Shown: positions 3,643 through 47,607, numbered from the stretch's first letter. The stretch is 64,000 bases of DNA from an uncultured Bacteroides sp. (GCA_944321465.1 CALULL010000004.1:21451-85450); one strand, 5' to 3'. Numbers and translations are program-made. Notes: a model not told the origin generated them from the sequence alone.

Positions 3643-4433
3643 AGACGAACTATCACACCCACACCACGCGTTGCCACCACGCCACCGGCAGCGACGAGGA
3701 CTACGTCAAGAGCGCCATCAAAGGCGGATTGCATACCTTGGGATTTTCGGACCACACGCCGTGGCACTACCGCACCGACTATGTGGCCCACATGCGCATG
3801 TTGCCGGCCGACCTGCCCGACTATGTGGAAAGCCTGAGAGATCTGCGCGGAAAATACAAGGACCAGATAGACATCAAGATAGGACTGGAGTGCGAGTACT
3901 TCCCCAACTACCTGCCCTGGCTCAAGGAGCAGGTTGCCGAGTACGGGCTGGACTACCTCATCTTTGGCAACCACTTCTACCACACGGACGAGACATTCCC
4001 CTACTTCGGCTCGCACACCGACAGCCGGGACATGCTCGACCTCTACGAGGAAAGTGCCATCGAGGGAATGGAGACGGGGCTTTTCTGCTGCTTGGCACAC
4101 CCCGACCTGTTCATGCGCTCCTATCCCCGGTTCGACCACCACTGCACCACCATCAGCCGCCACATCTGCCGGGCCGCCGCACGGCTCAACATCCCCTTGG
4201 AGTACAACCTCAACTACATGGCCTTCTGCGACCTGAAGGGGCTTGCCCCCTACCCTTGCCCCGAGTTCTGGCACATTGCCACCAACGAGGGTTGCACGGC
4301 CATCATCGGCTACGATGCCCACGACAATGCCGACTTTGAGACGGCCGTCTACTACAACCGGGCACTCGAAGAGCTGAAGCTGCTGGGCATCCGAACGACC
4401 GACACCTTGCCCATGCGCAACAACGCAAAATAA
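3639..4433 (+). CDS. histidinol-phosphatase-like PHP family hydrolase (HisJ family)
   Basis: N-terminal metal-binding motif NYHTHTTRCHHA...GFSDH. ATGA overlap with the upstream gene. Confidence 0.8.
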   Translation: MKTNYHTHTTRCHHATGSDEDYVKSAIKGGLHTLGFSDHTPWHYRTDYVAHMRMLPADLPDYVESLRDLRGKYKDQIDIKIGLECEYFPNYLPWLKEQVAEYGLDYLIFGNHFYHTDETFPYFGSHTDSRDMLDLYEESAIEGMETGLFCCLAHPDLFMRSYPRFDHHCTTISRHICRAAARLNIPLEYNLNYMAFCDLKGLAPYPCPEFWHIATNEGCTAIIGYDAHDNADFETAVYYNRALEELKLLGIRTTDTLPMRNNAK

Positions 4434-24600: not shown

Positions 24601-27600
24601 ACCTCGCCGTTCACCTTGATTACGGCCTCGGACTCCACGTAGAAGCGGGTCTGGATGCTACAGGCATCTCCCATCTGGGTGGCGAAGTAGTCAAGCAAGT
24701 CGGTATCTGACATGCCTCCATCTCCATCCTCCGGGGTGGCCGGGATAATGAGCATGATGTAAGGACGGTTGGGCGACAGCACCGAGTAGAAGTCCACAGT
24801 GAGCCGTCGGCCTGCGGCCTCGTCCTCCGAGCCTGTGCGGTAGAAGTAGGGCTTGCCGTCCTTCATGTGCTGGTAGGCAAAGAAGTAGTCGCCCTGGTCC
24901 ACGTCGTCTTCCTCATGCCCGGGGAACGTGCTGGTTCCTACGGGGTCGTTGTCCTCAAAGCGGTTCATGAAGTACATCGACATTATCCTTGTATTGATGA
25001 CCTCGCCGTCGCCAATCTCTACGATGGAATGGTCTATCGCCTCGGCTATGCTGCCCGGATGAGAGGCCAGATAGTTATTGTAGTCCGTCTCATCAATAAA
25101 GCAAAAGCTGAAACCGTTCTCCCCCGTGCCGCCTTCGCCGCCGAGACGCGACATAAGACGCTCCCAGTCCATCTCGATGTTCATGCGTGTACGCTCGTTG
25201 GTACAAGAGTATTCTTTCTGGGTGACGGCAGCACTGGGACGGCCTATGAAGACTTTGATGTCGTCCACGTAGATGTCACCACCCTTGGTAGAGGCCGAGT
25301 TGTTCTCTATCTGGAGCACATAGGAGGTGAAGTTGGCCGCCTCGTCGCTGTTGTTCATAAAAGAGAAGTACACCTGATACCACTGGTTGGTGTTTCTTCC
25401 CGTACCCGGGTCGCCAGCCTCAAGCTGGTCTGTGCGTCGTATCTGGCTGCTGGAGTGGCGGTAAAGGGGCGTATAGCTCCCGTCCTCATTCACGCCCATT
25501 ATGGTGAACAACACGGCAGCATCGTCGCCGGAACTCGAACTCTTAAGCCACGCCGTGACAAACAACTCAGACCCCCTACAGAGCTGTTCGTTGAAAGGAA
25601 GCCGGGCGATGATGCCCGGGCGGTCGGATGTATCTATGTAAAGGAAGTGCCCGTCGGGGTCCTTGCCAAGGCCCGAAGGAGGATCTGGAACTTCATTCAT
25701 ATACTCCGAATAACCGATGTAGGCATTCGCGATGGCGTAGTATCCCCACTCCACATACGTCGACACGCCTATTATGAAATCGCCGCTCTGCGAGCCATCG
25801 AAGAAAGCATAACTGCTGTGCTCCCACTCCATAGGGAACGGGAAATAAGCACGCTGGTAGCCTGCACCTCCGTATATGTCGGCCACCGTCGGGTCGTAGT
25901 TGAAGGTCAAGGCCGTGAGCGAGTCCAGGTTCTCGCGCATCCAAGCCGGAGAACGGTAGGTATAGTTCCAGTCGCGCCCCGTAGCCGCCGCAGTGCCCAG
26001 CTGTGCTACCTGGCTCTGCGTCAGCGGGACGGTGTTGTCCTCGAAGGTGAGGTTAAAGCGGGCTATGTTGTACGTCTTTTCCCTGTTATATTCATCACGC
26101 ACCTTCTTCGTTACCAGAATGGTGGCGGTGCTTCCGTCCTCTACCTCCCAAGATGTTTGTGCACCGCTCCGTTGCCGACGGAACTGAATGATGCGGTTCG
26201 CCCCACTAAGGTCGTTCGTCACGAGCGAGATGCCCGCGTTGTTGTCCGCCAGCGAGACAGTCAGCCCGCTGTTCTCATCCACGTCGGGAATGGCGTAGCT
26301 ATGCGCGTCCTTCGACAGTGCTACCAGTTCGTCGGTATAATTGGACAAGTGCTTGCTGGGGAAGGTGATGTCGTACTCTTCCAAGTACTTCCCGCTTGTG
26401 CCGCCTCCCTGATACTCTGATGTAGACAGCCGTCCGTGGCCGTTACGCCAATTCTCTGCCTTGTCCGGCGAGGAACTGTTGTCGCGGTCGTCCACACCCA
26501 CGATATAGAAGATGACGCGCACCGTCAGCGTAGGCTCGTAATAGCCGTTGTTGCGGAAACGAGCTACCCAATCGTCCCGATTAGTAATAGGATCACGCCC
26601 CGGATAGTCCGCCGTGAAGTCCGTGTAGCCGGACACGTCGCAGGCCACCACGTACCAATCGTTGTCCAGGTCGGGGTTGCCCGCCGCCTGCGGGAACCAT
26701 TCTTCGAACTCTGTGTCCGTGGGATAATAGAAGTTCATGGCCTGCACCACATCAGCGGACAGGGGTCGTCCTACATATCCGTTGGCAAACCTATAGGCAG
26801 TCCCGCTGATGGGAGTTAGCAAGTCCCACACGTTGTTTGCCCCCGTCTCGTTCGTGCGGAAAGTTCCGTCCGTTCGGTAGCTGTACCAACGCTGATAGGT
26901 CTGCACACTCGACGTTCCCCCGTTTCCCGACTGGCTTTTTGTAGGCAAAGCCAAGTCGATACTCTTCCCCTTGTGCATATAGATGGTGTCTATGTACGTG
27001 TGTGCCGCCTGTATGCCTTCGGTAGCCGAGGAGGAGATGGGGTCGAACCGGGGGCGGTCGTAGCTGAACGTGCCAAGGCTGCGTACAGGCAGGTTCAACT
27101 GCTCACGAAGGTCGAACCACTTGGGATCCTTATGCCGGATGACGGGGTCGTTACTTTCTGCCGCGAAGAAGTAGAGTTCGTTGATGAGAAGAGGACGATA
27201 ACCGAGGGCAGCTTTTCGAAAAGTAAGGCGCACATACGGAGCCGAAACTGGTTCGGAAAGTGTCACCGTGGCTACATTGTCATTATAAGTAAGGTCATAC
27301 TCGTCCCCTACTTGTTTAAATCCCGAGTTTTCATTATCACTTATCGATATTCTTATATGAGTCGGTCCACTTTGGGTAGACACAATCTGTATCCGTCCCA
27401 ACTCGGCATTGCTCAACGTATAAGTATCGTAAGGTAAACCTCGACTATTTTGCTCTGCATAGGTAGTCTCATTACCGTCTGTCATGCGGCTTGCATTATT
27501 AAATAAGCTCGAATGCCCCGGCCGCTCCAACTGGAGTGGAGTGTAGTTGGCACTGCCACTTTCCGTTGTATATCGGTTTCCCTCTACCCTATCCTGTCCC

Positions 27601-27695
27601 CACGCCCCCTGCACGGTGGCCACAGTCAGGGCCAGCAGGAGCAAGAGGGAGGAGGCGTGGCGGGCGAGGCGGTGGTGTATGCGTGTTGCTTTCAT
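21657..27695 (-). CDS. giant (2012 aa) secreted pilus-operon protein: Sec signal peptide, discoidin/CBM32-like N-terminal domain, ~1700 aa I could not assign by eye, T9SS type-A C-terminal sorting domain
   Basis: The ORF is intact. Signal peptide ...LLLLLALTVATVQGAWGQ with no lipobox. aa ~60-175 carry TDGNETTY...INELYFF, resembling F5/8 type C. The last ~75 aa, RLTAYSVRRGEVIVSADVPLRTVQVYSVGGLLL...LPSGVAVVRATMADGRTTAVKVAVQ, fit the T9SS CTD pattern. It starts 14 nt downstream of the preceding pilin gene. Confidence 0.85.
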   Translation of the reverse strand: MKATRIHHRLARHASSLLLLLALTVATVQGAWGQDRVEGNRYTTESGSANYTPLQLERPGHSSLFNNASRMTDGNETTYAEQNSRGLPYDTYTLSNAELGRIQIVSTQSGPTHIRISISDNENSGFKQVGDEYDLTYNDNVATVTLSEPVSAPYVRLTFRKAALGYRPLLINELYFFAAESNDPVIRHKDPKWFDLREQLNLPVRSLGTFSYDRPRFDPISSSATEGIQAAHTYIDTIYMHKGKSIDLALPTKSQSGNGGTSSVQTYQRWYSYRTDGTFRTNETGANNVWDLLTPISGTAYRFANGYVGRPLSADVVQAMNFYYPTDTEFEEWFPQAAGNPDLDNDWYVVACDVSGYTDFTADYPGRDPITNRDDWVARFRNNGYYEPTLTVRVIFYIVGVDDRDNSSSPDKAENWRNGHGRLSTSEYQGGGTSGKYLEEYDITFPSKHLSNYTDELVALSKDAHSYAIPDVDENSGLTVSLADNNAGISLVTNDLSGANRIIQFRRQRSGAQTSWEVEDGSTATILVTKKVRDEYNREKTYNIARFNLTFEDNTVPLTQSQVAQLGTAAATGRDWNYTYRSPAWMRENLDSLTALTFNYDPTVADIYGGAGYQRAYFPFPMEWEHSSYAFFDGSQSGDFIIGVSTYVEWGYYAIANAYIGYSEYMNEVPDPPSGLGKDPDGHFLYIDTSDRPGIIARLPFNEQLCRGSELFVTAWLKSSSSGDDAAVLFTIMGVNEDGSYTPLYRHSSSQIRRTDQLEAGDPGTGRNTNQWYQVYFSFMNNSDEAANFTSYVLQIENNSASTKGGDIYVDDIKVFIGRPSAAVTQKEYSCTNERTRMNIEMDWERLMSRLGGEGGTGENGFSFCFIDETDYNNYLASHPGSIAEAIDHSIVEIGDGEVINTRIMSMYFMNRFEDNDPVGTSTFPGHEEDDVDQGDYFFAYQHMKDGKPYFYRTGSEDEAAGRRLTVDFYSVLSPNRPYIMLIIPATPEDGDGGMSDTDLLDYFATQMGDACSIQTRFYVESEAVIKVNGEVIDPSQTFCAGQVFNFSAQLRVPTGVDDEGNDTYDVLDEGVYFDWFFGTKEEFLAVDPTAKTSLQAALLDFRHFYPDATELDATTLPKEEDDVVFSQEELNLIERYVTSPVVTGGMHRRLVLHRENLDITLLNTGLQLVIQPIQTLVPPEGSGISKDQWAQICWNYIPVLLSVSGDAPQLHPGFNTVTYPAVDFNPALRIGLKQIRETAVGGNGTALRMDLRGAVIITDGATHLGKIETSEGMDMLYLVDSDDPAYSDYFTGTDFNEYSLPIGQIEELRAEVYGQGPSYNDYMTLRFDLSKQANGFQFAPKEGYTYTFSVHFEEKGAAEDEVYNSCYGSFNVRMKVVPEYLKWTGTAQDNWNNDDHWQRLSGSELHYTPTDAEVRDHVTDGGINANTKGFVPMLFSNVVMPADSRAQLYMAGYAQGGGYAQGGAAWSGSDNRPEGMGDPTENIQYDLMVYEQNNQLTTQRYRVNICRDIHFMPGAQLLHAEQLIYNRAWTDVPVPAKQWTLISTPLQGVVAGDWYTTTKGTQANEPYFRDITFNDENDRLNPAVYQRSWDQSATIVEQGGQTAPAHFSAAWSSVFNDARVPYVPGGGFSIKTAAAGSGNSLQFRLPKADTKYDVSTGTLNREGAGKLLVTDLLDRSNPLVYSPKESVTAELTPSQDGKYLIVGNPFMAPLDLQKFFDGNTHLQPKYWTETKDGPAVGSADDESHWIETIEGATIPPYGAFFVEKAEGATGNTVSFTADMQTFGTATGGTTGTNSLVVTAENASGRSRAALAYAYAATDGYRAEEDAQLIADLTGDGTAAPVVYTVAGDVAASVNRLHGQRQVPFGLFAAEEARTLLTFTGVSALRNPRLYDAVAGTETPLAEGYTLTLAGASHGRYFLRSDGSTATGIGDEQGGDEARLTAYSVRRGEVIVSADVPLRTVQVYSVGGLLLDGSEPSADASVCRFDGLPSGVAVVRATMADGRTTAVKVAVQ
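23305..23340 (-). repeat. in-frame 18-bp tandem duplication inside the giant gene (encodes GGYAQG x2)
   Basis: CCGCCCTGGGCATATC occurs at 23305 and again at 23323. The protein reads ...YAQGGGYAQGGAAW... Confidence 0.8.
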
Positions 27696-27709
27696 TGTCT
27701 GTTTCCTCC

Positions 27710-29122
27710 TTATTTATATGAATACATGTTGAGCACTTCCACGTCGAGCCAACGGGAAGAGGCTGCGCGCGTGGTGACGGGGTCTTGGAACTCGACATCG
27801 GTGATGTCCGTGGTGACGACCCGCAGCGTGTAGGTGCGGTTGTAGGACTGGCCGTCGTCCGTCCACGTGGCCTGCGCCGTGAGGGGGATTTCCTGTCCGG
27901 CACTGGCGGTGACGTGGCCTGCGACGGTGGTGCTGCCGGGCGTGTAGCCGTCGAAGTCAAGGCCACGGACGGCAGACGGGTCGAAGCTCCAGGTGCAGGC
28001 CATGTCGGCGGGCTGCTCCGTGGCGGTCTCGCCGGTGTAAACGCCGTCGATGTCGAACTGGAACTGTGCACCCTCGGGCAGCTTCACTTCGTAGGTATTC
28101 GGGTCAAGGGTAGCCACTACCGGCACAGGGTAGGAGCCGATGGGGCTGACCCAGCACTGCACACGGATGTCCAGCCCGTAGTCGTCCAGCGTCAGCACCA
28201 GCGGGTAGATGCTGTTGCGGGGCAGGTCGTGTCGCGCGGTAGTGGCGGTGTAGGTGGTGCCGCCACGGTTGCTGGTCGTCACGCTGACGGCGAAAGGCGC
28301 TGCGTGGGCCACCGTCTCGTTGACGTAGAACTCCAGGCCGCCTGTGGCGGCAACCTCGGCTTGAGAGAACGTCCGCTCCCCGTCGCAGGTCACATCGGCG
28401 GGCGCGGCATTGGCAGAGAGCAACGCCACGCGGTCGGCCCAGCCACTGAAGGTCAAGCCGGTGGCCGACGAGGCACTTGCCCCCTGCAGCGAGATGCGCA
28501 CCTTGCTCACCAGCCTGTCCAGACCGATGGAGATGCCCGTGGTGGCGGGGGTGACGGTGACCGTCAGGGGGACGGCACTCATGGGGATGAAGTGGCGGCT
28601 GCCGTTGCCGTCGGCATCATTGAAGTCTATCTTCGCGGCGGGGTCGTCGAGGACGATGCTCGCCAGCGAAGGCAACGTCTCGTCCTTCTCTATACCTATT
28701 ACTATATTATATAGCTCCGTGCTATACGTCGCGTCGATGTTGGCGAAGGCGTAGAAGGTGTAGGTGCCGGGGGCGAGGGTGAGCGGCTGGCTGTAGGTGC
28801 GCAGGTTGCCCTCCTGGGCGGCGGCGTTCGTGCTGAGGTCGGGAGCAATCTTCTCGACCACGGTGCCTGCGTCGTCCACGATGAAGACGCAGAGCGAGTG
28901 CATGAACTCGTGCGTCGTGCCCGGCTCCTCGCCCACGGGGTCGGGGTCGTCGCCCGGTGCACGGGTGTTCAGGTCGCCGGCCTCGCGGGTGGTGATGCGC
29001 AGCTGCATCTCGGCGGGCTGTCCCGGCAGGGGCAGCCCCTCCAGCCCGTCGGAGGGCGAGCAGCCCCCGAGGCAACCCGCCAGCAGGGCGGTGCGTAATG
29101 CGTGTTTCAAGAATGTCTTCAT
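27710..29122 (-). CDS. fimbrillin-like lipoprotein (type V pilus accessory/tip subunit candidate)
   Basis: Lipobox LLAGC/LGGC. A prodomain ends in ...DLNTR|APGDD ~35 aa after the Cys. An FimA-superfamily-like N-terminus (LCVFIVDDAGTVV...GTYTFYAFANID). Confidence 0.6.
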   Translation of the reverse strand: MKTFLKHALRTALLAGCLGGCSPSDGLEGLPLPGQPAEMQLRITTREAGDLNTRAPGDDPDPVGEEPGTTHEFMHSLCVFIVDDAGTVVEKIAPDLSTNAAAQEGNLRTYSQPLTLAPGTYTFYAFANIDATYSTELYNIVIGIEKDETLPSLASIVLDDPAAKIDFNDADGNGSRHFIPMSAVPLTVTVTPATTGISIGLDRLVSKVRISLQGASASSATGLTFSGWADRVALLSANAAPADVTCDGERTFSQAEVAATGGLEFYVNETVAHAAPFAVSVTTSNRGGTTYTATTARHDLPRNSIYPLVLTLDDYGLDIRVQCWVSPIGSYPVPVVATLDPNTYEVKLPEGAQFQFDIDGVYTGETATEQPADMACTWSFDPSAVRGLDFDGYTPGSTTVAGHVTASAGQEIPLTAQATWTDDGQSYNRTYTLRVVTTDITDVEFQDPVTTRAASSRWLDVEVLNMYSYK

Positions 29123-29177
29123 ATCTTGTCTATGGTACTCTTAGCTATTATCGTTCCTCACGGCACTGCCTGCGGGG

Positions 29178-29262
29178 GCGCAGGTGTGCTCCCTTGCGGG
29201 CAGACCTGTACCCCGGCGGGGGCAGACCTGTGCGCCCACGGGGGCAGACCTGCGGTCCGCCC
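29178..29262. repeat. GC-rich array inside the pilus operon: one REP-like unit plus three GGGCAGACCTG units on a 22-nt period
   Basis: GCGCAGGTGTGCTCCCTTGCGGGCAG at 29178-29203. GGGCAGACCTG at 29198, 29220 and 29242. Confidence 0.65.
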
Positions 29263-29279
29263 GGCGGCACAGGCGCGGC

Positions 29280-30974
29280 CTACAGCGGTATCTCCTCCTG
29301 GGGCAGCAGCAGCCAGTCGTTGACGTAGACCAGGATGCTGAGGCTCTCGTCGCCCGGCACGTAGCCGCCCAGCGAGTAGACGCTCTGCACGGTGAGCTTG
29401 TATATGTTGTTGCGCACGATGGCATACTCCATCGGGCCGTTCGTTTCGTCGTTGCCGTCGTTGGCGTGGCGCACCCACCACGTGTAGTAGCACTGCGCGT
29501 CCTCGTAGGTGCGCACGCCGTGGGGTTGCAGGGCCCGGCGGGTGACTACGTCGCCTTGGTCGAGGGTGACGGCGTGGCCGTCGGCCTCGCTCATGGAGTA
29601 GCCGCACGCGCGGAGCATGTAGTCGCTCCACTTCACTGCGCCCGCATAGTCCGTCAGCCCCAGCAGGTAGTCGCGGTAGCCCGACGGCTCGCCCTCGGGC
29701 AACGTCATGGCAAAGTCGTGTACCTCATCCAAGCCGGTGCAGGCGGCAAGCAGCTCGCCGTAGCGGTCGAAGTCCGGGCCGCAGAACCAGCGCATCATGT
29801 CCTCCATCGTAGCAAAGAGCTGGTTGCCCAGGGCGAAGAAGGTCTCGCCCGTTGCCCAATAGTCGGGCATCCCCGTGGGGGTGAACCGGGCGCGGAACAC
29901 TACGCCCGTGTTGCGCTCCTCGGTGGTGGCCTTGGCGGGGGTGGTGTTCTCCTGCGTGTAGCCTATGCGGTACCAGCCGCCGCCCACCGACGTGCCCGGT
30001 TGTGTCCACCCGGCCCAGTCGTTCGGGTCGTCCGAGCGGTCGGTGTAGGGCAGGCCGTACGTTGCCACGTCGGGGTCGGTGGTGAAGGGGGTGAGGACGT
30101 AGTTGGTGGCCGCACCGGTAGCGGCATCGGCTGTCTCGTCGCCGAGGTAGACCGGCGTGGTGCTCCCGGGCTCATCGGCCACCCGCTTCAGGAGGTAGCT
30201 GCCCGAGGTGAGGTCGTTGACGATGGCCGCGCCCAGTATCTCCACCTTGCCGCCCTCGTACTGCGGGTCCTTGCACGTGTAGGTGCCCGTCGTCTTATAG
30301 TCTATGCGTGCGGCCAGCCGCTCGATGTCTATCGTGGCGGTGGCAGGCTCGGAGGCGGGGTTGGCTTCCAGCGTGATGGTAGCGTCGGCCTCGGAGGACA
30401 TCAGGAAGTCGGTGCCCGTGCCCGTCCACTGCCGGGTCTCCAGGTGGTCGCGCACCGTGCCGAGGGTAAGCTCTTCGGCCTGCTCCCACCAGCTGTCGCG
30501 CGGGTTGGCCACGGCCAGCAGGTGATAGGTGCCGTCGGCCAGCGGGACTTCTTGCGCGGCGGTGACGTAGGTTCTTTCTACCTCATGGCCGCTGCCGGCG
30601 GTGCCTTCCGTCCCTGCGGGGCCGACGGGAAACACCACGGCGGCACTGACGGGGGTCGTGGCCAGGGCGTTCACCCCGGCTTCGGCCTGGTAGAAGAACA
30701 CCACCACGCTACCGACGGCGTTCTCGTCCGCCGTGCCGTCCTCCTGCCCGTCGCCCAGTTCGCCTCCCGTGGGGTTGGCCCGCGTGCCGGGCGAGGCCGG
30801 GGTGGAGAGGGTGAGCGAGACGTAGGAGCGCACCTCCACCGCGCCCCCGCCGCCGACGTCGGGCGAGAGAGCCTGGTCGTCCGTGCAGGCGGCAAAGGCG
30901 AGGGCGAGGAGCAGCCCCACCCCGGCCCTCCCCCTAAGGGAGGGGGTTCTGTCCGCTGATATCTTGTGTCTCAT
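29280..30974 (-). CDS. Mfa1-family fimbrillin-like lipoprotein (second paralogue; accessory subunit candidate)
   Basis: Lipobox LAFAAC and prodomain ...SPGTR|ANPTG. The C-terminus VRNNIYKLTVQSVYSLGG...LSILVYVNDWLLLPQEEIPL parallels the Mfa1 C-terminal strands. ATG at 30974. Confidence 0.65.
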   Translation of the reverse strand: MRHKISADRTPSLRGRAGVGLLLALAFAACTDDQALSPDVGGGGAVEVRSYVSLTLSTPASPGTRANPTGGELGDGQEDGTADENAVGSVVVFFYQAEAGVNALATTPVSAAVVFPVGPAGTEGTAGSGHEVERTYVTAAQEVPLADGTYHLLAVANPRDSWWEQAEELTLGTVRDHLETRQWTGTGTDFLMSSEADATITLEANPASEPATATIDIERLAARIDYKTTGTYTCKDPQYEGGKVEILGAAIVNDLTSGSYLLKRVADEPGSTTPVYLGDETADAATGAATNYVLTPFTTDPDVATYGLPYTDRSDDPNDWAGWTQPGTSVGGGWYRIGYTQENTTPAKATTEERNTGVVFRARFTPTGMPDYWATGETFFALGNQLFATMEDMMRWFCGPDFDRYGELLAACTGLDEVHDFAMTLPEGEPSGYRDYLLGLTDYAGAVKWSDYMLRACGYSMSEADGHAVTLDQGDVVTRRALQPHGVRTYEDAQCYYTWWVRHANDGNDETNGPMEYAIVRNNIYKLTVQSVYSLGGYVPGDESLSILVYVNDWLLLPQEEIPL

Positions 30975-31239
30975 CTCTTCTTGTATCTTAATGTTTACAT
31001 CTATTCGTTTCCTTTGTTGTCTGCCTCCCCTCGGTCCTAACGGGGCTCCGGGGAGCGAGGCGGCGAAGCCGTCCAACTATGCTTAGCCCCGGGCGAACGG
31101 AGCGGACCCGGGGTCCTTATGCAACCCCTCCTCGCATCGGCCCCGTCCAAGAGGGCGGATGGCACAAGGCGGCGCAAGGGCCGTACCTAATACCTCGTCA
31201 ACTCATGCCTAACCACTCGTTAACTAACCCCCACGTCGG

Positions 31240-32355
31240 CTACAGATCGGCAAACTGCACCCTGACGCTCCACTCCAGCACACTGATGCGGATGTTGGCA
31301 TAGGCCAGGCGACCGCCCTTCAGGAAGAAGTCGAGCTGGTAGTCGTAACCACGGTCGAGGAACTCCTGCGGCGAGTAGCTGTAGGCCGACTCGCTGGTGC
31401 GCAGGCGGCTGAGCAGGTCGGGCAGGTTGATGCGTATGACCTCCTGCCCCGTCTCGCGGCTCGTCACCGAGAGAATGGCGTCGTCCGCCGGGTCGTCGTG
31501 GTAGATGATGCGCGAGGTCATAAAGTCGGCATGGGCTATGCGGCCCACTTGCACCTGCGTCTCCCCGTCGGCACGGCTGTCGGCGGTGCGGTCGGTCGTG
31601 TTCCAGGTGGCGTGGGGGGTGTAGACCACGGTGCCTGCCGACTCGTCCACCGTGTTGTCCCACAGCAGGTGGGCGTTGCGGTCGGTGATGCGCATGTCGA
31701 ACTGTGCCACGTCGGTAGTCCACGGCTCGTCGATGTCGCGCAGCGTGACGTTTATCTTCTTCGTGTCGCGCACCAGCGGGATGGTGGCGTAGGTGGGTTT
31801 CTCGGTGAAGACCTCCACCGGCTCTACGTGCAGGCCGTGCCACAGGGTGTCGAGCGGCTCGCCGCCGTGGGGCACAAGGAGGGTGCCGGTGCCGTCGTCG
31901 CGGGTGTCAAGACGTATGTCGAGCGTCTGCATGTCGTCGCCGGGGATGAGCTGCGAGCGCACGAAGTGGGCGCGCCGGGTGGACAGCTGGCTGTCGTAGT
32001 CGGTCTGCCCGGCCAGCACGACAAACTGGTAGCGACCGGGCTGCAGGTCCATGTGCATGGCGTAGCCGGGCTGCGCCAGCGGGCGGTCGTCGCCAACGTT
32101 GGCCTCGCTCTGGCAGGTGACGTAGCGTCCCTGTTCGTCGAAGACGTAGACATCGACCGCGCCCACGTGGTCGGCAAACATGTCGGCACGCTCCAGGTTG
32201 TAGTCGTACTCAAAGCTCAGGTAGAGGCCGAAGGGGCAGTCGCTACGGTCATCGTGCATCATGTCGCACGAGGCGAGCACTGCCGCAGCCGCCACAGTGG
32301 CTACTGCCCGGCCAAGGCGCGGGCATAGGCGGCCACGCGTGGCGTTGTGTTTCAT
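31240..32355 (-). CDS. FimB/Mfa2-family fimbrial anchor/terminator subunit
   Basis: Lipobox VLASC, then DDRSDCPFGLYLSFEYDYNLERADMFADHVGAVDVYVFDEQGRYV, the pattern I recall for Mfa2-family proteins. It sits directly after the Mfa1-like gene. ATG at 32355. Confidence 0.65.
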   Translation of the reverse strand: MKHNATRGRLCPRLGRAVATVAAAAVLASCDMMHDDRSDCPFGLYLSFEYDYNLERADMFADHVGAVDVYVFDEQGRYVTCQSEANVGDDRPLAQPGYAMHMDLQPGRYQFVVLAGQTDYDSQLSTRRAHFVRSQLIPGDDMQTLDIRLDTRDDGTGTLLVPHGGEPLDTLWHGLHVEPVEVFTEKPTYATIPLVRDTKKINVTLRDIDEPWTTDVAQFDMRITDRNAHLLWDNTVDESAGTVVYTPHATWNTTDRTADSRADGETQVQVGRIAHADFMTSRIIYHDDPADDAILSVTSRETGQEVIRINLPDLLSRLRTSESAYSYSPQEFLDRGYDYQLDFFLKGGRLAYANIRISVLEWSVRVQFADL

Positions 32356-32507
32356 CGTTGCCTGCATAGGTGTTCCCATATATAAGTTTACGTTATGTTC
32401 TGTCTCGTTCTCTATGTCGTTTGTCCGGCATCCCCGGACGGGGGGCAGGGTGCACGCCCTGCTATGGTGTTACCGACACGGATTGCGGCGCAAGTTTCTC
32501 CCCCTTG

Positions 32508-33113: not shown

Positions 33114-35000
33114 TTAGAGGTCTACGTCCTGCGTGCGAACTGCCCAAGAGAGGATGTTGATTTCGACAGATATCCAAGACTCAACAGGGTCGTCAGGACC
33201 GTACTCGGGTTCAACGTCGGCAGAGCCAATGCTGCTGATGGACTTGACGTTGACGGTGTACCAGTTGTTGCGCAGCACGCCGTAACGTCCCAGCCAGTTG
33301 TTAGCACCGCTGGAGTCGGGGTACGAGGATATATCGCTGGCATCGTCCGTGTCCCAAGGAGTAGCGTCGTCGCCGAAGTGCTTTATCATAACCGGATAGT
33401 AGGCCACGCCACCCTTGTAGTAGGAAATCTTGTAGGCAGCGTTGATGTCATTCGTAACAGTCTGGTTGTTCGAGGCCAAAGCAACAGGAATGGTAGAGTT
33501 CTCGAAGTTGTCGGCAGCATCTGCACTCACGTGGACAGTAGCCACCGTCACTGTACCACCCTCCAAGTTGCCAAGGTCTTCGTCTGCATCATCCGTGCCA
33601 TGCTTGTAGGTGACAACAAGGTCTTCTCCGCCGATGCTTCCAGTCGAAGTCAGACCACCCTCTCCGTGCAGAGCAGCCTGTACTACAGCGTTGTCCAAAT
33701 AGGCCTGCTTAACGACGTTCTCGATGTCCGCTTTCTTGTAGAAAGTGCTCTTGACGTTGTTCAGAACGTAGAAGTCGCCGTTGCCCTCACCAGCATAACC
33801 TACCGAGAGTTTTACAGCCACGATGACACGTGTGGTCTGGTCTTTCATCATGTTGGCGGTGTTGAAGGTGTTCTCAAGGCAGTACATGGGATTGGTCGCA
33901 CCGGTCTGAGTCAACGTCGTGGGGGCGGTACCAACTACCGAGAAGAACTCTGTGCTGGCATTTACATTACCAGTTGTGCCATCGGTGTAGCCCGTGCCGT
34001 CGTAGTTCGGGTCAATGCCCCAGTACGTGCGATACAAGCCGGGGTCTACGGCAGCCGCGCCTACAAAGCGGTAGTGGTCGCCTGTGGATGCCGTATTGTA
34101 GTAGGACCACCAGCCGGCACCATTCACGTTGCGCACGGGGAAGGTCTTCTGGTTCGTAATGTCGAGCGTCCAGCCAGCGATGTCGTTCACGGTTACGCCC
34201 GTTGGCATACCGCTGTCATCCAAGGAAGCATCCTCTGTCACCGTCACCTTGGCCACGGCACGTTCCACGTAGATGTCGGCAGCAGGGTTGTCCTCAGCCA
34301 TAGACTCCGAGTCGAAGATGTTGTTGGGGTCTATCACGGACAGTACCCGGGCCGTAGCAGTCGCAGCGGGCTGAGTCTGCCCACCGGGAGCGGTATAGAG
34401 GGGCGCGTTGAGCATCAGGAAGTTTCCGCTTCCGCTACGGGAAGCCATGCCAGCAATCTGCTCCTTTGTAAGAGTGAGTGCAGCGTTGAACTGGGCAAAG
34501 GTCGTCGTGCCGCTTGTCAGCGTGGTGTTGCCAATCTTCCAAGTCGTTGCGTTCCCGGCTGTTTCGGAAGTCAATATGCCGCTGCCGTTAATCACCGCCA
34601 AGGCGTAGATGTTCTGGCCTGCGGTCGTGGTGGGGCGCACGATGGGGGCCGTATAGCTGTACTTCGAAGTGATGTTGTCATCCTCGGGGTTGTAGTCCGC
34701 CTGCGTTCCGGCCAAGGCGTATGCACCGTTGAAGATTGAGTTCTGCTCGTTAGCACCCACGAAGATGAGCAACGTGGCTTCGTTCACCTTATATTCCACT
34801 GCGTCGCCGTCGTCGAAGTCGTCGTTGGCCGCACGCGTCGAAGGCTGTGTAGGCAGGTTGATGGCCAGGCTGACATAGCCGGTCTCGCCTGCGCCCACTC
34901 CGCCCTGGGGTTGTCCGTTGTTCACCCCGAGGTCGTCGGAACAAGCTCCCAGCACCAGTGCTGCCAGTGCGAGGGAGAAGAATTGTCTCTTTGTTTTCAT
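33114..35000 (-). CDS. mfa1: Mfa1-family fimbria major (stalk) subunit
   Basis: Lipobox LVLGAC and prodomain ending ...QPSTR|AANDD. The C-terminus VLRNNWYTVNVKSISSIG...WISVEINILSWAVRTQDVDL closely parallels P. gingivalis Mfa1 (VVRNNIYHIHIKSIKKLG...MSVEVTVLPWKVHSYEVDL). Confidence 0.85.
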   Translation of the reverse strand: MKTKRQFFSLALAALVLGACSDDLGVNNGQPQGGVGAGETGYVSLAINLPTQPSTRAANDDFDDGDAVEYKVNEATLLIFVGANEQNSIFNGAYALAGTQADYNPEDDNITSKYSYTAPIVRPTTTAGQNIYALAVINGSGILTSETAGNATTWKIGNTTLTSGTTTFAQFNAALTLTKEQIAGMASRSGSGNFLMLNAPLYTAPGGQTQPAATATARVLSVIDPNNIFDSESMAEDNPAADIYVERAVAKVTVTEDASLDDSGMPTGVTVNDIAGWTLDITNQKTFPVRNVNGAGWWSYYNTASTGDHYRFVGAAAVDPGLYRTYWGIDPNYDGTGYTDGTTGNVNASTEFFSVVGTAPTTLTQTGATNPMYCLENTFNTANMMKDQTTRVIVAVKLSVGYAGEGNGDFYVLNNVKSTFYKKADIENVVKQAYLDNAVVQAALHGEGGLTSTGSIGGEDLVVTYKHGTDDADEDLGNLEGGTVTVATVHVSADAADNFENSTIPVALASNNQTVTNDINAAYKISYYKGGVAYYPVMIKHFGDDATPWDTDDASDISSYPDSSGANNWLGRYGVLRNNWYTVNVKSISSIGSADVEPEYGPDDPVESWISVEINILSWAVRTQDVDL

Positions 35001-35044: not shown

Positions 35045-36514
35045 TCAGTCTGTATCTGTCTCGCTGTGGCGGTCGTCGGCGGGGGCGGTGGTGGCGGGGC
35101 CTTCGATGAGGCGCAGGTTGTCGCCCGCCTCTCGGCAGCCGGCCTCCTGGGCCTGGCGCATGAGGCGGCAGCCGCCGTCGGTGTCGCCGCGCAGCACGAG
35201 CAGCACGCCCCGGGCGTGGTCGGCCTGGGGCGAACGGCCCGCACGGCGCAGGAAGTGCTCGGCACCCTCGTAGTCGCCCACCTCCATGCGGGCACAGGCG
35301 GCGTTGAGGTTGGCCGTGGGGTCGTCGGGGAACATGCGCACGGCCGTCTCCATCACCTCGTTGAAGCGGGGCGTGCCCGGCTCGTAGGTCTGCGCCAGGG
35401 CGTACATCTCTTCGAGGGAGAGCTGCTGGGGCTTGGTGCGGATTATCTCGCGGGCCTCGTCGACGGTGAAGGGACGCACGTAGTAGCGCACCACGTAGTC
35501 GGAGTGGCGCAGGGCGGGATACCACGTCTGCAGCATGAAGCGGTAGTCGTCGGGGTAGCGGTCGCGTATGCGGTGTTCCTTCACGTCGGGGTCGAGCGTG
35601 GCGTCGTCTATCAGGGCCAGTATGGCCTCGCGGTTGTCCAGGTTGCTGCCGTCCACGTAGCGGCGCAGTCCCTCCCAGTCCTCGGGGGTAGAGGAGACGC
35701 GGAAGGTGGTGTCGGGCAGGGCCACCATGCGGCGCACGTAGTCCGTCAGGGTGCGTGCGCGGTTCTCGGCCAGGTAGGTGTTGTGGCGGTAGGTGTCCTC
35801 GGGCGAGGCGTAGCCGTGTATCTCCACGCGGTAGATGGTGGCGTTGGTGTCGTTCTTCACCACGTTGATGGAGTTGACTATTTTTGCCAGCTCGGTGGGG
35901 TTGGCGCGGTAGTCGGGGTAGAGGGTTATCTTGTCCACGGGGAAGTCAATGAAGGCTTGCCCGTCGTAGTGGCGCTCCTTGGGTCCCTCGACCGCAGGGC
36001 GCACATAGGGCATACGGGGACGGCGCAGGCGGCGCAAGGGGGTGACGGCCTGATCCAGCACGTCGCCGCAGCCGCAGAGGTCTTCCTCGATGGCCACGTC
36101 GCAGTTCTTCATCCACGGCTCGTAGGGCAGCACGGCACTGTAGTGCACGGTCTGCCGCGTGCCGTTGCGGCGGTAGACGGCCAGTGCGTCGGGCCCGTAG
36201 TCGTTGTGGGCGAAGCGTTTGTAGGAGATGGACTGCTTGCGCCCGTTGAGCACGATGGGGGGCATCAGGCGGGTGTAGCCGTCGCCGCCCGAGACGGTGG
36301 GCGTGAACACCATGCGGCGGTTGGCCCGCAGGTGGAGGGAGTCGAGGCAGAGGTCCATGTCGAGCACCAGGGTGCGGTCGGTAGGCTCCACCTTGAGGTT
36401 GCGCACGGCGATGGTGCTGTCGGCCAGCATGGGCACCGCCGTCTGCGCGTCCAGCCCGGCGGGCAGCAGTGCTGCGGCGCAGAGAAGCAATATGGGTATT
36501 GTCGTCTTGGTCAT
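35045..36514 (-). CDS. DUF3868 domain protein with a TPR-like C-terminal region
   Basis: Signal peptide, then VRNLKVEPTDRTLVLDMDLCLDSLHLRANRRMVFTPTV.., typical of DUF3868. A central OmpA-like segment (VEIHGYASPEDTYRHNTYLAENRARTL). It holds the canonical position between DUF3575 and the pilin gene. Confidence 0.75.
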   Translation of the reverse strand: MTKTTIPILLLCAAALLPAGLDAQTAVPMLADSTIAVRNLKVEPTDRTLVLDMDLCLDSLHLRANRRMVFTPTVSGGDGYTRLMPPIVLNGRKQSISYKRFAHNDYGPDALAVYRRNGTRQTVHYSAVLPYEPWMKNCDVAIEEDLCGCGDVLDQAVTPLRRLRRPRMPYVRPAVEGPKERHYDGQAFIDFPVDKITLYPDYRANPTELAKIVNSINVVKNDTNATIYRVEIHGYASPEDTYRHNTYLAENRARTLTDYVRRMVALPDTTFRVSSTPEDWEGLRRYVDGSNLDNREAILALIDDATLDPDVKEHRIRDRYPDDYRFMLQTWYPALRHSDYVVRYYVRPFTVDEAREIIRTKPQQLSLEEMYALAQTYEPGTPRFNEVMETAVRMFPDDPTANLNAACARMEVGDYEGAEHFLRRAGRSPQADHARGVLLVLRGDTDGGCRLMRQAQEAGCREAGDNLRLIEGPATTAPADDRHSETDTD

Positions 36515-36563: not shown

Positions 36564-37157
36564 CTAAAACACATAGATGAGGCTCAACGCAGCCTTGGTA
36601 GGCCCGAGGTAATTGCTGTGGTCGGACTTGAGCCGCTCGCCACAGTCGCCGCAGACGAACTTGTCGTACTTTATGTAGTCGTAGCCCAGGCCCAGCGAAG
36701 CCTCGAAGTTCCAGTGACGGGCCAGCATCCACTGGTAGCCCACGGTGATGCCGCCCCCGGCGTACCAGCCCTCGTAGCGGTGCTGCCGCAGGCCGTCGAG
36801 GATGCCCAGGGGGAGGTCCACCCCGGAGGCGTTGAACTCGCCCCCCATGAGGTGTGCGCCGAGAAACCAGCCGTTGAAACTCTCGCAGAACCAGTAGCGG
36901 TACTCGGGCTGCAAGGCCCAGTGGCGCAGGCTCTTGCCCGAGGGCGACCGCCAAGGGTTCAGCCCGTAGAACAGCTGCACGCTGTGCTTGCGGGCAAAGG
37001 AGACTTCCAGCCCCAGGTTGGGGGTGGTGGTGGCCCAGTAGAGCACGTTGGTCTTGAGCGCCACGTTTTGCGCCGAGGCCGTGGCACAGACACCCGCCAG
37101 GCCAAAGAGGGCAAGCAGCGCGACACGTCTTACCCGTCTGAAGTGTTCTGTCTTCAT
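36564..37157 (-). CDS. DUF3575 domain outer-membrane protein
   Basis: Signal peptide MKTEHFRRVRRVALLALFGLAGVCATASAQ, then NVALKTNVLYWATTTPNLGLEVSFARKHSVQLFYGLNPW. ATG at 37157 chosen inside track ORF 36564..37397. Confidence 0.8.
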   Translation of the reverse strand: MKTEHFRRVRRVALLALFGLAGVCATASAQNVALKTNVLYWATTTPNLGLEVSFARKHSVQLFYGLNPWRSPSGKSLRHWALQPEYRYWFCESFNGWFLGAHLMGGEFNASGVDLPLGILDGLRQHRYEGWYAGGGITVGYQWMLARHWNFEASLGLGYDYIKYDKFVCGDCGERLKSDHSNYLGPTKAALSLIYVF

Positions 37158-37544
37158 AAACGAATGCATTAGTGTATAGACTATTATAACCATCCTGACA
37201 TGCCCGACGCAAAAGGCCAACGCTGTTGGCACGGGACGCGGCAATGCTTCGCCTTCCATCGCCGCCCGTCCGCATCCTGCCTCGGACGCCATACAACGAA
37301 AACAGCCGCCCGCCGTCCGTCCCCGGAACGCCCGCCCGACACAAGCCACACAAGCCTCCAAGCCGCTGCCGCACGGCCTCTGTCTTCGTATTGCCACGAT
37401 TGCTCTATTGACTATCCTGCGTTTCTTCTTCCTTCATTGGCCGCCAAGGCTGCATCCTGCGCCCGGCAACCGGACCCTTATTCTGTTTCTTACTCACCAA
37501 AGAAACACCTGTCCTATAATAGCAATCTTTCATTTCCCGATAGC

Positions 37545-37746
37545 TCTCTTGGTAAGAGATGTATCAACACTGTAAGCACCAATATACCAACATGTTCTTT
37601 TTCTTTCTTTTCGATTTTGGTCAACAATGGCTTCATTTTCAACCCACCTTTTCTTGCCTCCACGCTCTTTTTTGTGTTAAAAGTTTGCAGGGAGACATCA
37701 CTTTTTGTTACCTTTGCGGCGTGTTGATACATCTCTTACCAAGAGA
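37545..37746. promoter_or_regulatory. candidate invertible DNA switch: 26-bp perfect inverted repeats flanking a 150-bp promoter-bearing segment
   Basis: TCTCTTGGTAAGAGATGTATCAACAC at 37545-37570. Its exact reverse complement GTGTTGATACATCTCTTACCAAGAGA at 37721-37746. The interior is AT-rich and non-coding. Confidence 0.6.
37684..37716 (+). promoter_or_regulatory. Bacteroidetes consensus promoter inside the switch (-33 TTTG, -7 TACCTTTG), currently reading rightwards
   Basis: TTTG at 37684-37687, a 21-nt spacer, then TACCTTTG at 37709-37716, ending 4 nt before the right inverted repeat. Confidence 0.55.
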
Positions 37747-37800
37747 AGTCATAGGGAAAAGGCACAATTGACAAGAGCCTAAGACTTTACCAAACCCCAC

Positions 37801-37821
37801 TACATCTCTTACCAAGAGAGC
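37801..37821. repeat. third, partial copy of the switch inverted repeat (same orientation as the right arm)
   Basis: TACATCTCTTACCAAGAGAGC matches the reverse complement of the left-arm region 37543-37563 over 21/21 nt. Confidence 0.7.
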
Positions 37822-37924
37822 CATTATTCCGACATTCCTCTCCCCTACTCTTCGAGACGGCATTTCCACCACTTCCACACTTCCAAAGCCACACGAGCAA
37901 CCTGGCGCACTTCTGCCCGCCTGG

Positions 37925-37990
37925 CAACGCACCTGCCCCCCCGCGGCAGCACACTTGTGCCCGCAAGGAGGCGAACCTATAGTGGACCGG
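37925..37990. repeat. GC-rich REP-like unit at the upstream edge of the pilus island
   Basis: CTTGTGCCCGCAAGGAGGCGAACCTATAGTGGACCGG (37954-37990) aligns with 21409-21441. The first 15 nt are identical, then a few substitutions and a 2-3 nt indel follow. Confidence 0.6.
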
Positions 37991-38180
37991 GCCGTCCTCT
38001 ACACCTTATTTATATAGTACCCCGCACGGCCTATACCCCCACCCTGCGCGGCAACCGCCGAGGACAGACAGACAAGCGGAGGCGTTATCCCATTGTCACC
38101 CGTTTGTCATAAGTCTGAAACCCTCCGATTGTTCCTTTGCGCCCGGAAAAATTGTTCAACAAACCCAAACCTCAAAACAA

Positions 38181-39614
38181 ATGAAAGGTAACGCATTAAT
38201 TTTAGGAATGCTGCTGTGCGGCTGCTGGCTGGAAGCTGCGGCACAAAGCACCGTGTTCGATTTTAGCGGACGAGTAACCGACAAGGCCGGAAAAGGCATC
38301 GCCAACGTGGTGGTGAACGACGGCTACGCCTTCACGAAGACCGACGGCAAGGGCGCATGGGCACTGACGTCGGACACCACGCGCAGCAAGTATGTCACCA
38401 TCTCGGTCCCCGCAGCCTACAACCTGCCGCAACAGGAAGGGCTGGCCGAGGGCTACTACGTGTCGGTAGGCCAGCTGGCCACGAAGGGTGGCAAACACGA
38501 CTTCGTGCTGGAGAAACGCCGCAAGCAGGAAGACTCCTTCCACTACATCGCCATCTCGGACCCGCAGGTAACCAATGCCGCCGAAATGAAACGCTGGCGG
38601 CAGGAAACGGTGCCCGACCTGAGGGAAGTCATCGACTCGCTGAAGCAGTCGCGCGAAGTAGTGATCATGACGCTGGGCGACCTGGTGCACGACAAGATGG
38701 GTCTGTACGACGAGTATAAAACGTCGGTGAAGAACACCGGGGCCGTATTCTTCCAGTGCCTCGGCAACCACGACCTCGACAAGCAGTATCAGGACCTGCA
38801 CAACATGGCCGTAGGCACACCCGTATACGCCGAAATGGTCTACAACCGCTACTTCGGCCCGACGGACTACTCGTTCAACATAGGACGGGCACACATCGTC
38901 ACCATGAAGAGCATGAACTACGTCGGCAACAGGAAGTATCAGGAAAGCATGACGGGCGACCAGATAGCCTGGCTGAAGAAGGACCTGAGCTACGTACCCA
39001 AGGGGAGCCTCGTCATCCTGAACATGCACACACCGGCCTGGAACCGCGTGACGACCGACGGCAACCTGCGCAATGCCGACGAGCTGGCCGAGGTGCTGAA
39101 GGGCTACAACGTGCACGTATTCAACGGCCATACGCACTACTTTGAGAACAGCGAGGTGACACCCACGCTCTACGAGCACAACATAGGCGCGGCCTGCGGC
39201 GCATGGTGGGCCGGATGGACCAACCGCTGCGGAGCACCCAACGGCTACATGGTGGTGGACGTGGACGGCGACCAGCTGAAGTGGCACTACAAGGGCACAC
39301 GCCGCGACTTTGCCTACCAGTTCAAACTCTACAACAAGGGAGAATTTGGAACACAAAGCAGCTTCGTGGTGGCCAACGTGTGGGACTGGGACAGCGCGTG
39401 CCGCGTGGTGTGGTATCAGGACGGCAAGCCTATGGGCGACATGGAGCAGTTTGTCGACATCGACGACACCCGCGTGAAGGAGCTTGGCCGCCGCTACCCG
39501 GGCGACCGCACCGCCCACCTGTTCCGCGCCATGCCTGCCGACGGAGCCAAGCAGATAAAGGTGGAGTTCACCAACCGCTTCGGCGAAGTCTACACGCAGA
39601 GCATAGACCTGTAA
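38181..39614 (+). CDS. secreted calcineurin-like metallophosphoesterase with an N-terminal carboxypeptidase-regulatory-like domain
   Basis: Signal peptide, GRVTDKAGKGIANVVVND (CarboxypepD_reg-like), then metallophosphatase motifs ISDPQ, GDLVHD, GNHD, NMHTP and GHTH. Confidence 0.85.
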   Translation: MKGNALILGMLLCGCWLEAAAQSTVFDFSGRVTDKAGKGIANVVVNDGYAFTKTDGKGAWALTSDTTRSKYVTISVPAAYNLPQQEGLAEGYYVSVGQLATKGGKHDFVLEKRRKQEDSFHYIAISDPQVTNAAEMKRWRQETVPDLREVIDSLKQSREVVIMTLGDLVHDKMGLYDEYKTSVKNTGAVFFQCLGNHDLDKQYQDLHNMAVGTPVYAEMVYNRYFGPTDYSFNIGRAHIVTMKSMNYVGNRKYQESMTGDQIAWLKKDLSYVPKGSLVILNMHTPAWNRVTTDGNLRNADELAEVLKGYNVHVFNGHTHYFENSEVTPTLYEHNIGAACGAWWAGWTNRCGAPNGYMVVDVDGDQLKWHYKGTRRDFAYQFKLYNKGEFGTQSSFVVANVWDWDSACRVVWYQDGKPMGDMEQFVDIDDTRVKELGRRYPGDRTAHLFRAMPADGAKQIKVEFTNRFGEVYTQSIDL

Positions 39615-47435: not shown

Positions 47436-47443
47436 TATCTTTG
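47436..47443 (+). promoter_or_regulatory. Bacteroidetes -7 promoter box TATCTTTG preceding the TPP riboswitch
   Basis: Matches TAnnTTTG immediately 5' of the riboswitch. Confidence 0.5.
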
Positions 47444-47448
47444 CCCCT

Positions 47449-47535
47449 CGCAACGACAAAGGGGTGCCCGTACCAGAAGGGCTGAGATCATACCCTCGAA
47501 CCTGATGCAGATAATGCTGCCGTAGGAATTGGATG
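47449..47535 (+). promoter_or_regulatory. TPP (THI-box) riboswitch
   Basis: AGGGGTGCCC...GGCTGAGATCATACCCTCGAACCTGATGCAGATAATGCTGCCGTAGGAA carries the conserved GGGGUGC / CUGAGA / ACCC / AACCUGAU..GAUAAUGC..CGUAGGAA blocks. It sits upstream of thiS. Confidence 0.85.
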
Positions 47536-47607
47536 ACATGCTTCCACACGCCCGCCACTGCGGGACACTTCTTTGCCCGTGCCGACATTAACCAACACAC
47601 ACAAGAC

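Follow-up and report, generated by a model that had tools for sequence, protein, structure and literature searches.

A three-armed invertible promoter as the probable phase switch of a type V pilus operon in an uncultured Prevotellaceae bacterium

We analyzed a 64,000-nt stretch of DNA (CALULL010000004.1:21451-85450 in assembly GCA_944321465.1, hereafter the window, with positions counted from its first nucleotide) that contains a candidate invertible promoter upstream of a type V (Mfa1-type) pilus operon. The host is an uncultured, GC-rich Prevotellaceae bacterium of the gut. The operon lies on the minus strand and begins with a gene for a DUF3575 outer-membrane beta-barrel-like protein (36564-37157; PF12099, 2.9e-75), whose ATG is at 37157. 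It is followed by a gene for a DUF3868 protein, identified by domain search (35045-36514), and by one for a 628-aa Mfa1-family major fimbrial subunit (33114-35000) that carries a Fimbrillin_C domain and matches NCBIfam NF038041 with 213 bits at a cutoff of 130. On the other side of the intergenic region, a metallophosphoesterase gene (38181-39614) is read divergently on the plus strand, with the SHMT gene next. Between these two oppositely oriented transcription units lie three copies of a short repeat, referred to here as the left (IR-L), middle (IR-M) and third (IR-R) arms, and a segment of non-coding DNA that carries a promoter.

IR-L (37545-37570, plus orientation) and IR-M (37721-37746, minus orientation) form an inverted repeat of 26 nt that is 100% complementary (26/26), and they flank a 150-nt, AT-rich, non-coding segment (37571-37720) that we call the promoter segment. 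Its GC content is ~36-41% compared to 58.8% for the window. The third arm, IR-R (37801-37824, minus), has the same orientation as IR-M, and its first 19 nt (37801-37819) are identical to a 19-nt core, TCTCTTGGTAAGAGATGTA, that is common to the other two arms and occupies 37545-37563 in IR-L. Paired with the left arm, IR-R matches over 24 nt (37540-37563 with 37801-37824) at 96%, with one mismatch. A 54-nt spacer, S (37747-37800), lies between IR-M and the core of IR-R. The arm sequence is TCTCTTGGTAAGAGATGTATCAACAC; its 26-mer occurs at two sites only in the 64 kb, with 0 expected in 100 shuffles, and every arm contains within the 19-nt core the near-palindrome TCTCTT-GGT-AAGAGA. These dimensions are those of an inverton, in which inverted repeats of ~15-30 nt surround a short non-coding segment. 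We found no function for spacer S. Both S and the leader of the pilus operon fold marginally better than shuffled sequences (z = -1.7 and z = -1.95, respectively), folding provided no basis for a terminator or riboswitch role of either, and Rfam gave no match at E <= 1 in 36900-38400.

The promoter segment contains a full Bacteroidetes-type promoter on the plus strand (37684-37716). It consists of a -33 TTTG (37684-37687), a 21-nt spacer, and a -7 element TACCTTTG(C) at 37709-37716, such that the complete motif TTTG-N21-TACCTTTGC spans 37684-37717 and provides the internal Bacteroidetes promoter typical of an inverton. The published consensus is TTTG at -33 and TANNTTTGY at -7 (PMC8748976). 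The -7 element ends 4 nt short of IR-M, and in the window the promoter reads rightwards, away from the pilus operon. A scan for TTTG-N18-22-TAnnTTTG returned 2 occurrences in the 64 kb versus 0.30 expected; sigma-70 scans are not relevant to Bacteroidetes promoters. The source organism appears to use the Bacteroidetes consensus, because TAnnTTTG boxes precede gene starts and a thiamine pyrophosphate (TPP) riboswitch. Eleven of the 25 exact TAnnTTTG boxes fall in non-coding DNA, which makes up ~15% of the sequence and is thus enriched in them, and several are positioned 24-53 nt ahead of gene starts, those of SHMT and Lon among them. A TATCTTTG -7 box at 47436-47443 directly precedes the riboswitch (47450-47545, plus strand; RF00059, 60.6 bits), which heads a set of thiamine biosynthesis genes (TMP-TENI, ThiC, ThiH-like, ThiF and ThiD/E).

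From IR-L to the DUF3575 start codon runs a fixed leader of 387 nt (37158-37544, minus strand) that contains no exact TAnnTTTG box on the minus strand. Its transcribed strand is G-rich, with 65-71% GC and a strong skew in 37200-37400, and it carries one weak terminator-like hairpin (GCCAACAGCGTTGGC + CTTTTGCGTC; 37216-37230, minus strand) ~60 nt before the start codon. In the closest relative that we found (L009, discussed below) the leader is only ~115 nt long. A preliminary description of this DNA had given the starts of DUF3575-DUF3868-mfa1 at 37157 and of the phosphoesterase at 38181, the 26/26 repeat around a 150-nt AT-rich non-coding segment, the promoter pointing away from the operon, and a leader free of minus-strand TAnnTTTG boxes. 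We arrived at the same coordinates and features, the last as far as exact boxes are concerned, and the 21-nt third copy that it had placed at 37801-37821 is correct relative to the left arm.

If the arms are sites of recombination, other arrangements of this region should occur in related DNA. We built in silico the products of recombination within the 19-nt core of the window and aligned to them the intergenic regions of metagenome contigs chosen by an exact DUF3575 or phosphoesterase protein. These criteria gave 15 distinct contigs, which belong to the sample series BRZ_ and ONAT22-1_. The set covers 24 of 43 and 24 of 75 index blocks carrying these genes, so there are at least 15 such contigs and the counts given here apply within these. 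The window corresponds to a metagenome scaffold in ENA, ONAT22-1_SAMEA6814431 scaffold_93 (assembly ERZ28614048), which is identical to it over the intergenic region and 3.8 kb of flanks, with consistent coordinates.

Fourteen of the 15 contigs could be classified, and both orientations of the promoter segment are present in natural DNA of the same species. We denote the arms L, M and R, the promoter segment P and the spacer S, with arrowheads for direction, and we designate as ON those arrangements in which the promoter faces the pilus operon. The arrangement of the window (state A, L> P> <M S <R; OFF) was found in six contigs (L002/L107, L004, L005, L008, L110 and L112), with 0-7 differences in 1023 nt. 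Five contigs (L001/L106, L003, L006, L109 and L113) have the outer flip between L and R (state B, L> S M> <P <R; ON) and differ from the predicted product at 5-8 positions, compared to 137-141 from unflipped A. The inner flip between L and M (state C, L> <P <M S <R; ON) is represented by L111, with 5 differences in 1024 nt, and the product of both flips (state D, L> S M> P> <R; OFF) by L007, with 6 in 672. Finally, L108 carries a two-armed allele without S (L> <P <R; ON), with 7 differences in 950. Spacer S, which is missing from this allele, lies on the opposite side of the promoter segment in states B and D. The arm-flanking sequences are exchanged exactly as a crossover inside the 19-nt core predicts, and in the arrangements with a flipped promoter segment TTTG/TACCTTTG is directed into the pilus operon.

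The contigs thus contain the inner flip that the preliminary description had predicted, the outer flip, which is the second of the two alternative inversions that it had derived from the third arm, and in addition the double product. Its proposals that the window was captured OFF, that a flip would turn the promoter into the pilus operon, and that a distal invertase would be required hold as far as sequence data can show. Two further observations concern the ends of contigs: L114 begins exactly at the arm 26-mer, and the L007 scaffold is broken at IR-L by a gap with the flank duplicated. Assemblers break in this manner when reads support more than one continuation. The three-armed topology, with at least three sites and more than two arrangements, resembles a shufflon in layout only, and no coding segments are shuffled.

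A 175-aa open reading frame (37200-37727, plus strand) runs from the leader across IR-L into the promoter segment and is given by gene callers in state A only. We considered whether it is a real gene; it has no Pfam match, crosses IR-L and is probably spurious. Its presence or absence among gene calls is nevertheless a handy marker of the state of the switch.

The preliminary description had also considered that the unit might be a miniature inverted-repeat transposable element (MITE), recognizable by many copies and target-site duplications. A MITE, or an artefact of assembly, would account for the terminal inverted repeats around a short AT-rich non-coding unit, for the 19-nt direct repeats that bracket S, and for the presence of the same core at other loci in other organisms. 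However, the unit is found at one locus in the 64 kb and in 15 of 15 contigs sits at the same position between the same two genes, with identical flanks, and rearranges in place only. Other elements with the same core have different interiors and lie at capsule or peptidase promoter positions, and the same states recur in both sample series. We consider it extremely improbable that the unit is a mobile element or an artefact with no regulatory switch.

We next describe the other loci that share the core. A scan of metagenome contigs with the 19-mer revealed that it flanks other AT-rich promoter segments of ~165-190 nt. In one group (L092, L093, L096/L102, L100, L101 and L103) the inverton starts 39 nt after the gene for a 416-aa tyrosine recombinase with Phage_int_SAM_5 and Phage_integrase domains, to which Arm-DNA-bind_5 is added in L093. 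In this group the inverton is followed by a gene of the UpxY antiterminator family (93 bits, just under the NCBIfam cutoff of 100 bits). A recombinase, an inverton and UpxY in this order are the classic layout of a capsule locus. Other groups with the same core lie ahead of a WecA/Wza polysaccharide locus and ahead of a C11 peptidase, with no recombinase in the fetched flanks, and invertons of this kind without a local recombinase are found in L097 and in L098 with its related contigs L094, L095 and L104. Homologues of the recombinase with 71% (L119), 66% (L120/121) and 59% (L122-125) identity come from Prevotella, Alloprevotella and GC-rich contigs, and in each case an inverton whose core is TCTCTTGGCAAGAGA follows the recombinase gene. 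In these invertons the TACCTTTGC box lies 17 nt from one arm, compared to 16 nt from IR-M in the window. L122 and L123 represent the same locus type in opposite orientations, and the L119 contig ends inside the arm. All three arms of the window carry the core of this class, TCTCTTGG(T/C)AAGAGA, as do the invertons of L092/093/097/098/101/103 and L119-L125, and the window has no recombinase gene immediately upstream of its inverton.

Because enzyme clade and site covary, we infer that a distal tyrosine recombinase acts on the arms of the window; it is likely that this enzyme belongs to the L093 clade and is encoded elsewhere in the genome. If its site resembles those of IntDOT-type enzymes, it would consist of 6-bp elements for binding on either side of an asymmetric overlap of 7 bp (TTGGTAA). 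Pfam scans found no recombinase among the ~48 likely genes of the window, and a tblastn search of the window with the L093 recombinase gave nothing below E = 4.9, in line with the earlier statement that none is encoded there. None was found within ~10 kb beyond either end of the window, and a homologue search with contig look-ups, some of them on members selected for GC-rich amino-acid composition, tied no enzyme to the host species or to the BRZ_/ONAT22-1 samples.

A genuine inversion could also be the work of an Mpi/Hin-type serine invertase, with no tyrosine recombinase involved. Mpi of B. fragilis acts in trans on many distant promoters, which it flips (PMC12632263), and our searches identified no enzyme for the window. 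However, the same core directly follows a tyrosine recombinase in at least seven independent locus types whose enzymes span 59-100% protein identity, and the 6+7+6 near-palindrome fits the core site of a tyrosine recombinase. In addition, the arms lack the Mpi-type repeat consensus, which in the 2003 work of Coyne and colleagues is reportedly ARACGTWCGT. A serine invertase thus has little probability in our assessment, and a tyrosine recombinase is the enzyme that we assume in what follows.

Three side observations concern this site class and its enzymes. First, in the polysaccharide locus with the same core one arm is tandemly duplicated, with starts 23 nt apart, in L095 (4552-4593), L098 (1961-2002) and L104 (174-215) and is single in L094 (188-206), indicating that extra arms recur in the class. 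Second, recombinases of the same clade with 57% identity (L126-L128; 2557-3813 in L126) and 50% identity (L130-L135) are possible orphan trans-acting invertases. The L126-128 contigs have 58-59% GC, no same-core arm is present in the fetched L126-L128 and L130-L135 contigs, and no link between these recombinases and the species of the window could be made. Third, most contigs with this recombinase clade are only 1.3-3 kb long. Assemblies seem to break routinely next to the recombinase genes, which would be expected of sampled populations that contain the neighbouring invertons in mixed states.

Several findings weigh against a functioning switch at the pilus locus. Every contig shows a single consensus state, with mixtures within a sample or clone suggested by contig breaks only, and states C and D are represented by one contig each. 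The best minus-strand box in the leader, a 7/8 match (TTTCTTTG) near 37491-37498, could be a weak fixed promoter. The leader that a transcript from the promoter segment would have, at least 387 nt, is unusually long for a genome in which other boxes lie 24-53 nt ahead of gene starts. To these is added the lack of a recombinase in the window, in the ~10 kb beyond it, or linked to the host species. Finally, state partly follows lineage: state A is common to all zero-difference relatives of the window, whereas the L001/L003 lineage has state B. This association, together with the one consensus state per assembly, is what would be seen if the arrangements were old, fixed structural polymorphisms that arose through a few inversions by homologous recombination between the repeats, with no active switch.

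Comparison of contigs with similar flanks argues otherwise. L109 (state B) and L111 (state C) have 0 mismatches over flanks of 2546 + 1300 nt, 3.8 kb in all, and are two recombination steps apart. L006 (state B) differs from the lineage of the window (state A) by 10 single-nucleotide polymorphisms (SNPs) in ~4 kb, and L001 (state B) and L007 (state D) have in common a 652-aa fimbrillin allele and an arm-flank SNP (ccgatagt / ACTATCGG). Because contigs with the same flanks differ in state, and an allele and a SNP are shared across states, these data favour recurrent site-specific recombination rather than old polymorphism. Furthermore, four states and a deletion allele are found among just 15 contigs, contigs break at the arms, and other loci link this core to a recombinase clade and likewise show both orientations. 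Repeats of 19-26 nt are also poor substrates for homologous recombination. We therefore regard fixed polymorphism as very unlikely. Three-armed alleles are present in lineages with flanks ~3.5% or more apart, and the two-armed L108 is within 0.1-0.6% of three-armed contigs, so the deletion looks derived and the third arm conserved.

Taking these findings together, we consider it very probable that the segment is a functioning recombinational switch (inverton) for the type V pilus operon. In the mechanism that we propose, the 150-nt segment would carry the operon's only consensus promoter between two perfect 26-nt arms. An enzyme acting in trans would use the near-palindrome with its asymmetric centre as core site. 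Recombination inside the 19-nt core of any two inverted arms would flip the intervening DNA, and recombination of two directly oriented arms would delete S and leave a simple switch with two arms. Transcription in the ON states would begin a few bases past TACCTTTG, at the edge of the arm, and the transcript would cross a leader of ~390-465 nt into DUF3575-DUF3868-mfa1. Orientation would thereby set expression of the pilus, and clonal populations would be expected to switch between states.

A more elaborate proposal, to which we give a low probability, is that the third arm, kept in lineages at least 3.5% apart, makes the locus a true four-state device. The ON states would then produce transcripts with different 5' leaders, with or without arm M and S, and the arm pairs (26 nt and perfect versus 24 nt with one mismatch) could set different rates of inversion or superimpose a slow "lock" on faster switching. 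The proposal extends to the capsule: as the same core is present in capsule-locus invertons, pilus and capsule could be coupled in phase through a single recombinase acting in trans.

We then turn to the gene that the switch serves. In the closest related species that we found (L009; DUF3575 77% identical) a homologous switch is present: its arms, CTCTTGGCAAGAGACG, enclose 318 nt of AT-rich DNA, and its TTTG-N19-TATCTTTG promoter is directed into DUF3575-DUF3868. The other neighbour in L009 is a co-directional YggS-like gene, not a phosphoesterase. Because L009 keeps the DUF3575 operon and differs in the other neighbour, the pilus operon appears to be the conserved partner of the switch. One could instead propose that the switch mainly serves the metallophosphoesterase, or toggles it against the pilus, such that OFF would be phosphoesterase ON. 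Consistent with this idea, the promoter faces the gene at 38181 in the OFF states A and D, and we found no terminator-like site on the plus strand between promoter and gene. However, in state A the promoter is 465 nt from the start codon, and a separate -7-like box (TTCCTTTG at 38132-38139) belongs to the gene itself, 42 nt upstream. The L009 switch, as described, keeps the pilus operon next to a different neighbour, and reviews of surface-structure loci under inversion control do not list a metallophosphoesterase (PMC12632263). We judge a switch devoted to the phosphoesterase unlikely, and this gene is probably not the conserved target; read-through into it from the OFF states is possible as a secondary effect.

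The exact 26-mer is absent from 185,579 GTDB species representatives. The nearest DUF3575 relatives in GTDB are those of Candidatus Prevotella intestinigallinarum (77%), Prevotella sp. CAG:617 and Paraprevotella metagenome-assembled genomes (MAGs), and because the best of these is only 77% identical, the species, or this locus, seems to be unrepresented in GTDB. A JGI metagenome scan with the 19-mer found other loci and not this one. A Prevotellaceae MAG (L013) has a DUF3575 pilus locus (74% identical) with its own adjacent tyrosine recombinase (2106-3080) and the pilus gene at 4001. Its 26-nt repeats, TTACTTTGCAGGTAACGGATGGAAGA, lie at 3131-3156 and 3800-3825, 643 nt apart, and contain TTACTTTGCAGGTAACGGAT, which fits the motif published for the BF2766/BVU2684 switches; the recombinase is 35% identical to the L093 enzyme. 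Related pilus operons thus appear to use at least two different switch classes.

Beyond Mfa1, the pilus operon continues on the minus strand through 21657-32379. Domain searches identified an Mfa2 anchor-like protein (31240-32379), a second fimbrillin (29280-31076) and an Mfa2-like protein (27710-29122), followed by a 2012-aa protein encoded by the last gene of the operon (21657-27695). The sole Pfam match of the latter is an N-terminal F5/8 type C (discoidin) domain, just below the Pfam threshold, and we note it as a candidate giant tip adhesin. The Mfa1-family subunit varies in length among strains (628, 652 and 627 aa; L001, L003, L006 and L007) with DUF3575 100% identical, so within the species the stalk pilin may have undergone allelic replacement or antigenic diversification. 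The remaining genes of the window are ordinary chromosomal housekeeping genes.

The locus leaves the current picture of phase variation in Bacteroidales unchanged, as phase-variable Mfa1 pili have already been published. It provides a well-documented example of pilus phase variation for the poorly studied, largely uncultured GC-rich Prevotellaceae, and its three-armed layout illustrates that a promoter inverton is not limited to two states and that a deletion can remove one of its arms. The core TCTCTTGG(T/C)AAGAGA and its recombinase clade form a recognizable site-enzyme pair that recurs at promoters of capsule, peptidase and pilus loci in Prevotella, Alloprevotella and Parabacteroides and may allow invertase regulons to be predicted from sequence. 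Every predicted recombination product was recovered from public assemblies, with no need for reads, which makes such assemblies a cheap means of validating candidate invertons.

Invertible promoters ahead of Mfa1 fimbriae have been published for Phocaeicola vulgatus, and a single distal Tsr inverts the homologous promoters of B. fragilis (PMC12940148). Reconstitution in E. coli has been carried out for BVU2684 (PMC12940148). Phase-variable fimbriae and both local and distant invertases have long been known in B. fragilis (PMC12632263). The BF2766/BVU2684-type Mfa1/EPS switch (PMC12940148) is similar to ours in its invertible promoter before a type V pilus operon encoding Mfa1/Mfa2 pilins, in its ON/OFF logic, and in the ability of its tyrosine recombinases to act on distant promoters. 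It differs in its repeat motif, TACTTNNNANGTAANNGAA, which the arms of the window do not fit, with only GTAA..GA shared as judged by eye, and the switch of the window is further set apart by its third arm, its site class and the lack of a recombinase nearby. That class is seen in the capsular polysaccharide (CPS) invertons of gut Bacteroidales (B. thetaiotaomicron-type; PMC12632263, PMC8748976), which have the same 15-19-nt core, TCTCTTGG(T/C)AAGAGA(TGTA), the TACCTTTGC -7 box 16-17 nt inside one arm, and segments of 150-190 nt. By contrast with the window, the CPS invertons lie directly after their own recombinase and drive capsule operons, whereas the window has an orphan site, a pilus operon and an extra arm. 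We found no relevant paper on the core, in either variant, and no description of a three-armed promoter inverton with one segment common to three arms in the searchable literature, which is weak evidence in both cases.

Three other systems offer partial parallels. Mpi, the global serine invertase of B. fragilis (Coyne et al. 2003, cited in PMC12632263), exemplifies one invertase serving several dispersed promoter invertons, as would have to apply to the window too, but it is a serine recombinase with a different site consensus, which is not found in the window arms, TCTCTTGGTAAGAGATGTATCAACAC. In E. coli fimS (FimB/FimE), a promoter on a short invertible segment likewise sets fimbrial phase and is flipped by tyrosine recombinases; pilus and promoter type are unrelated, and fimS has only two arms, of 9 bp each, with its recombinases encoded locally. 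IP-ARG-2 (PMC8748976) also has more than two similar sites clustered at one regulatory locus. There, two adjacent invertible regions downstream of one invertase each have their own promoter and repeat pair, whereas the three arms of the window share one promoter segment, giving overlapping (nested) inversions. Judged by its arms, the switch described here is a pilus inverton of a site class otherwise seen at capsule loci. It belongs to the known family of Bacteroidales invertible promoters, within which its modest peculiarities are the orphan site, the three arms, the four observed states and the capsule-type sites.

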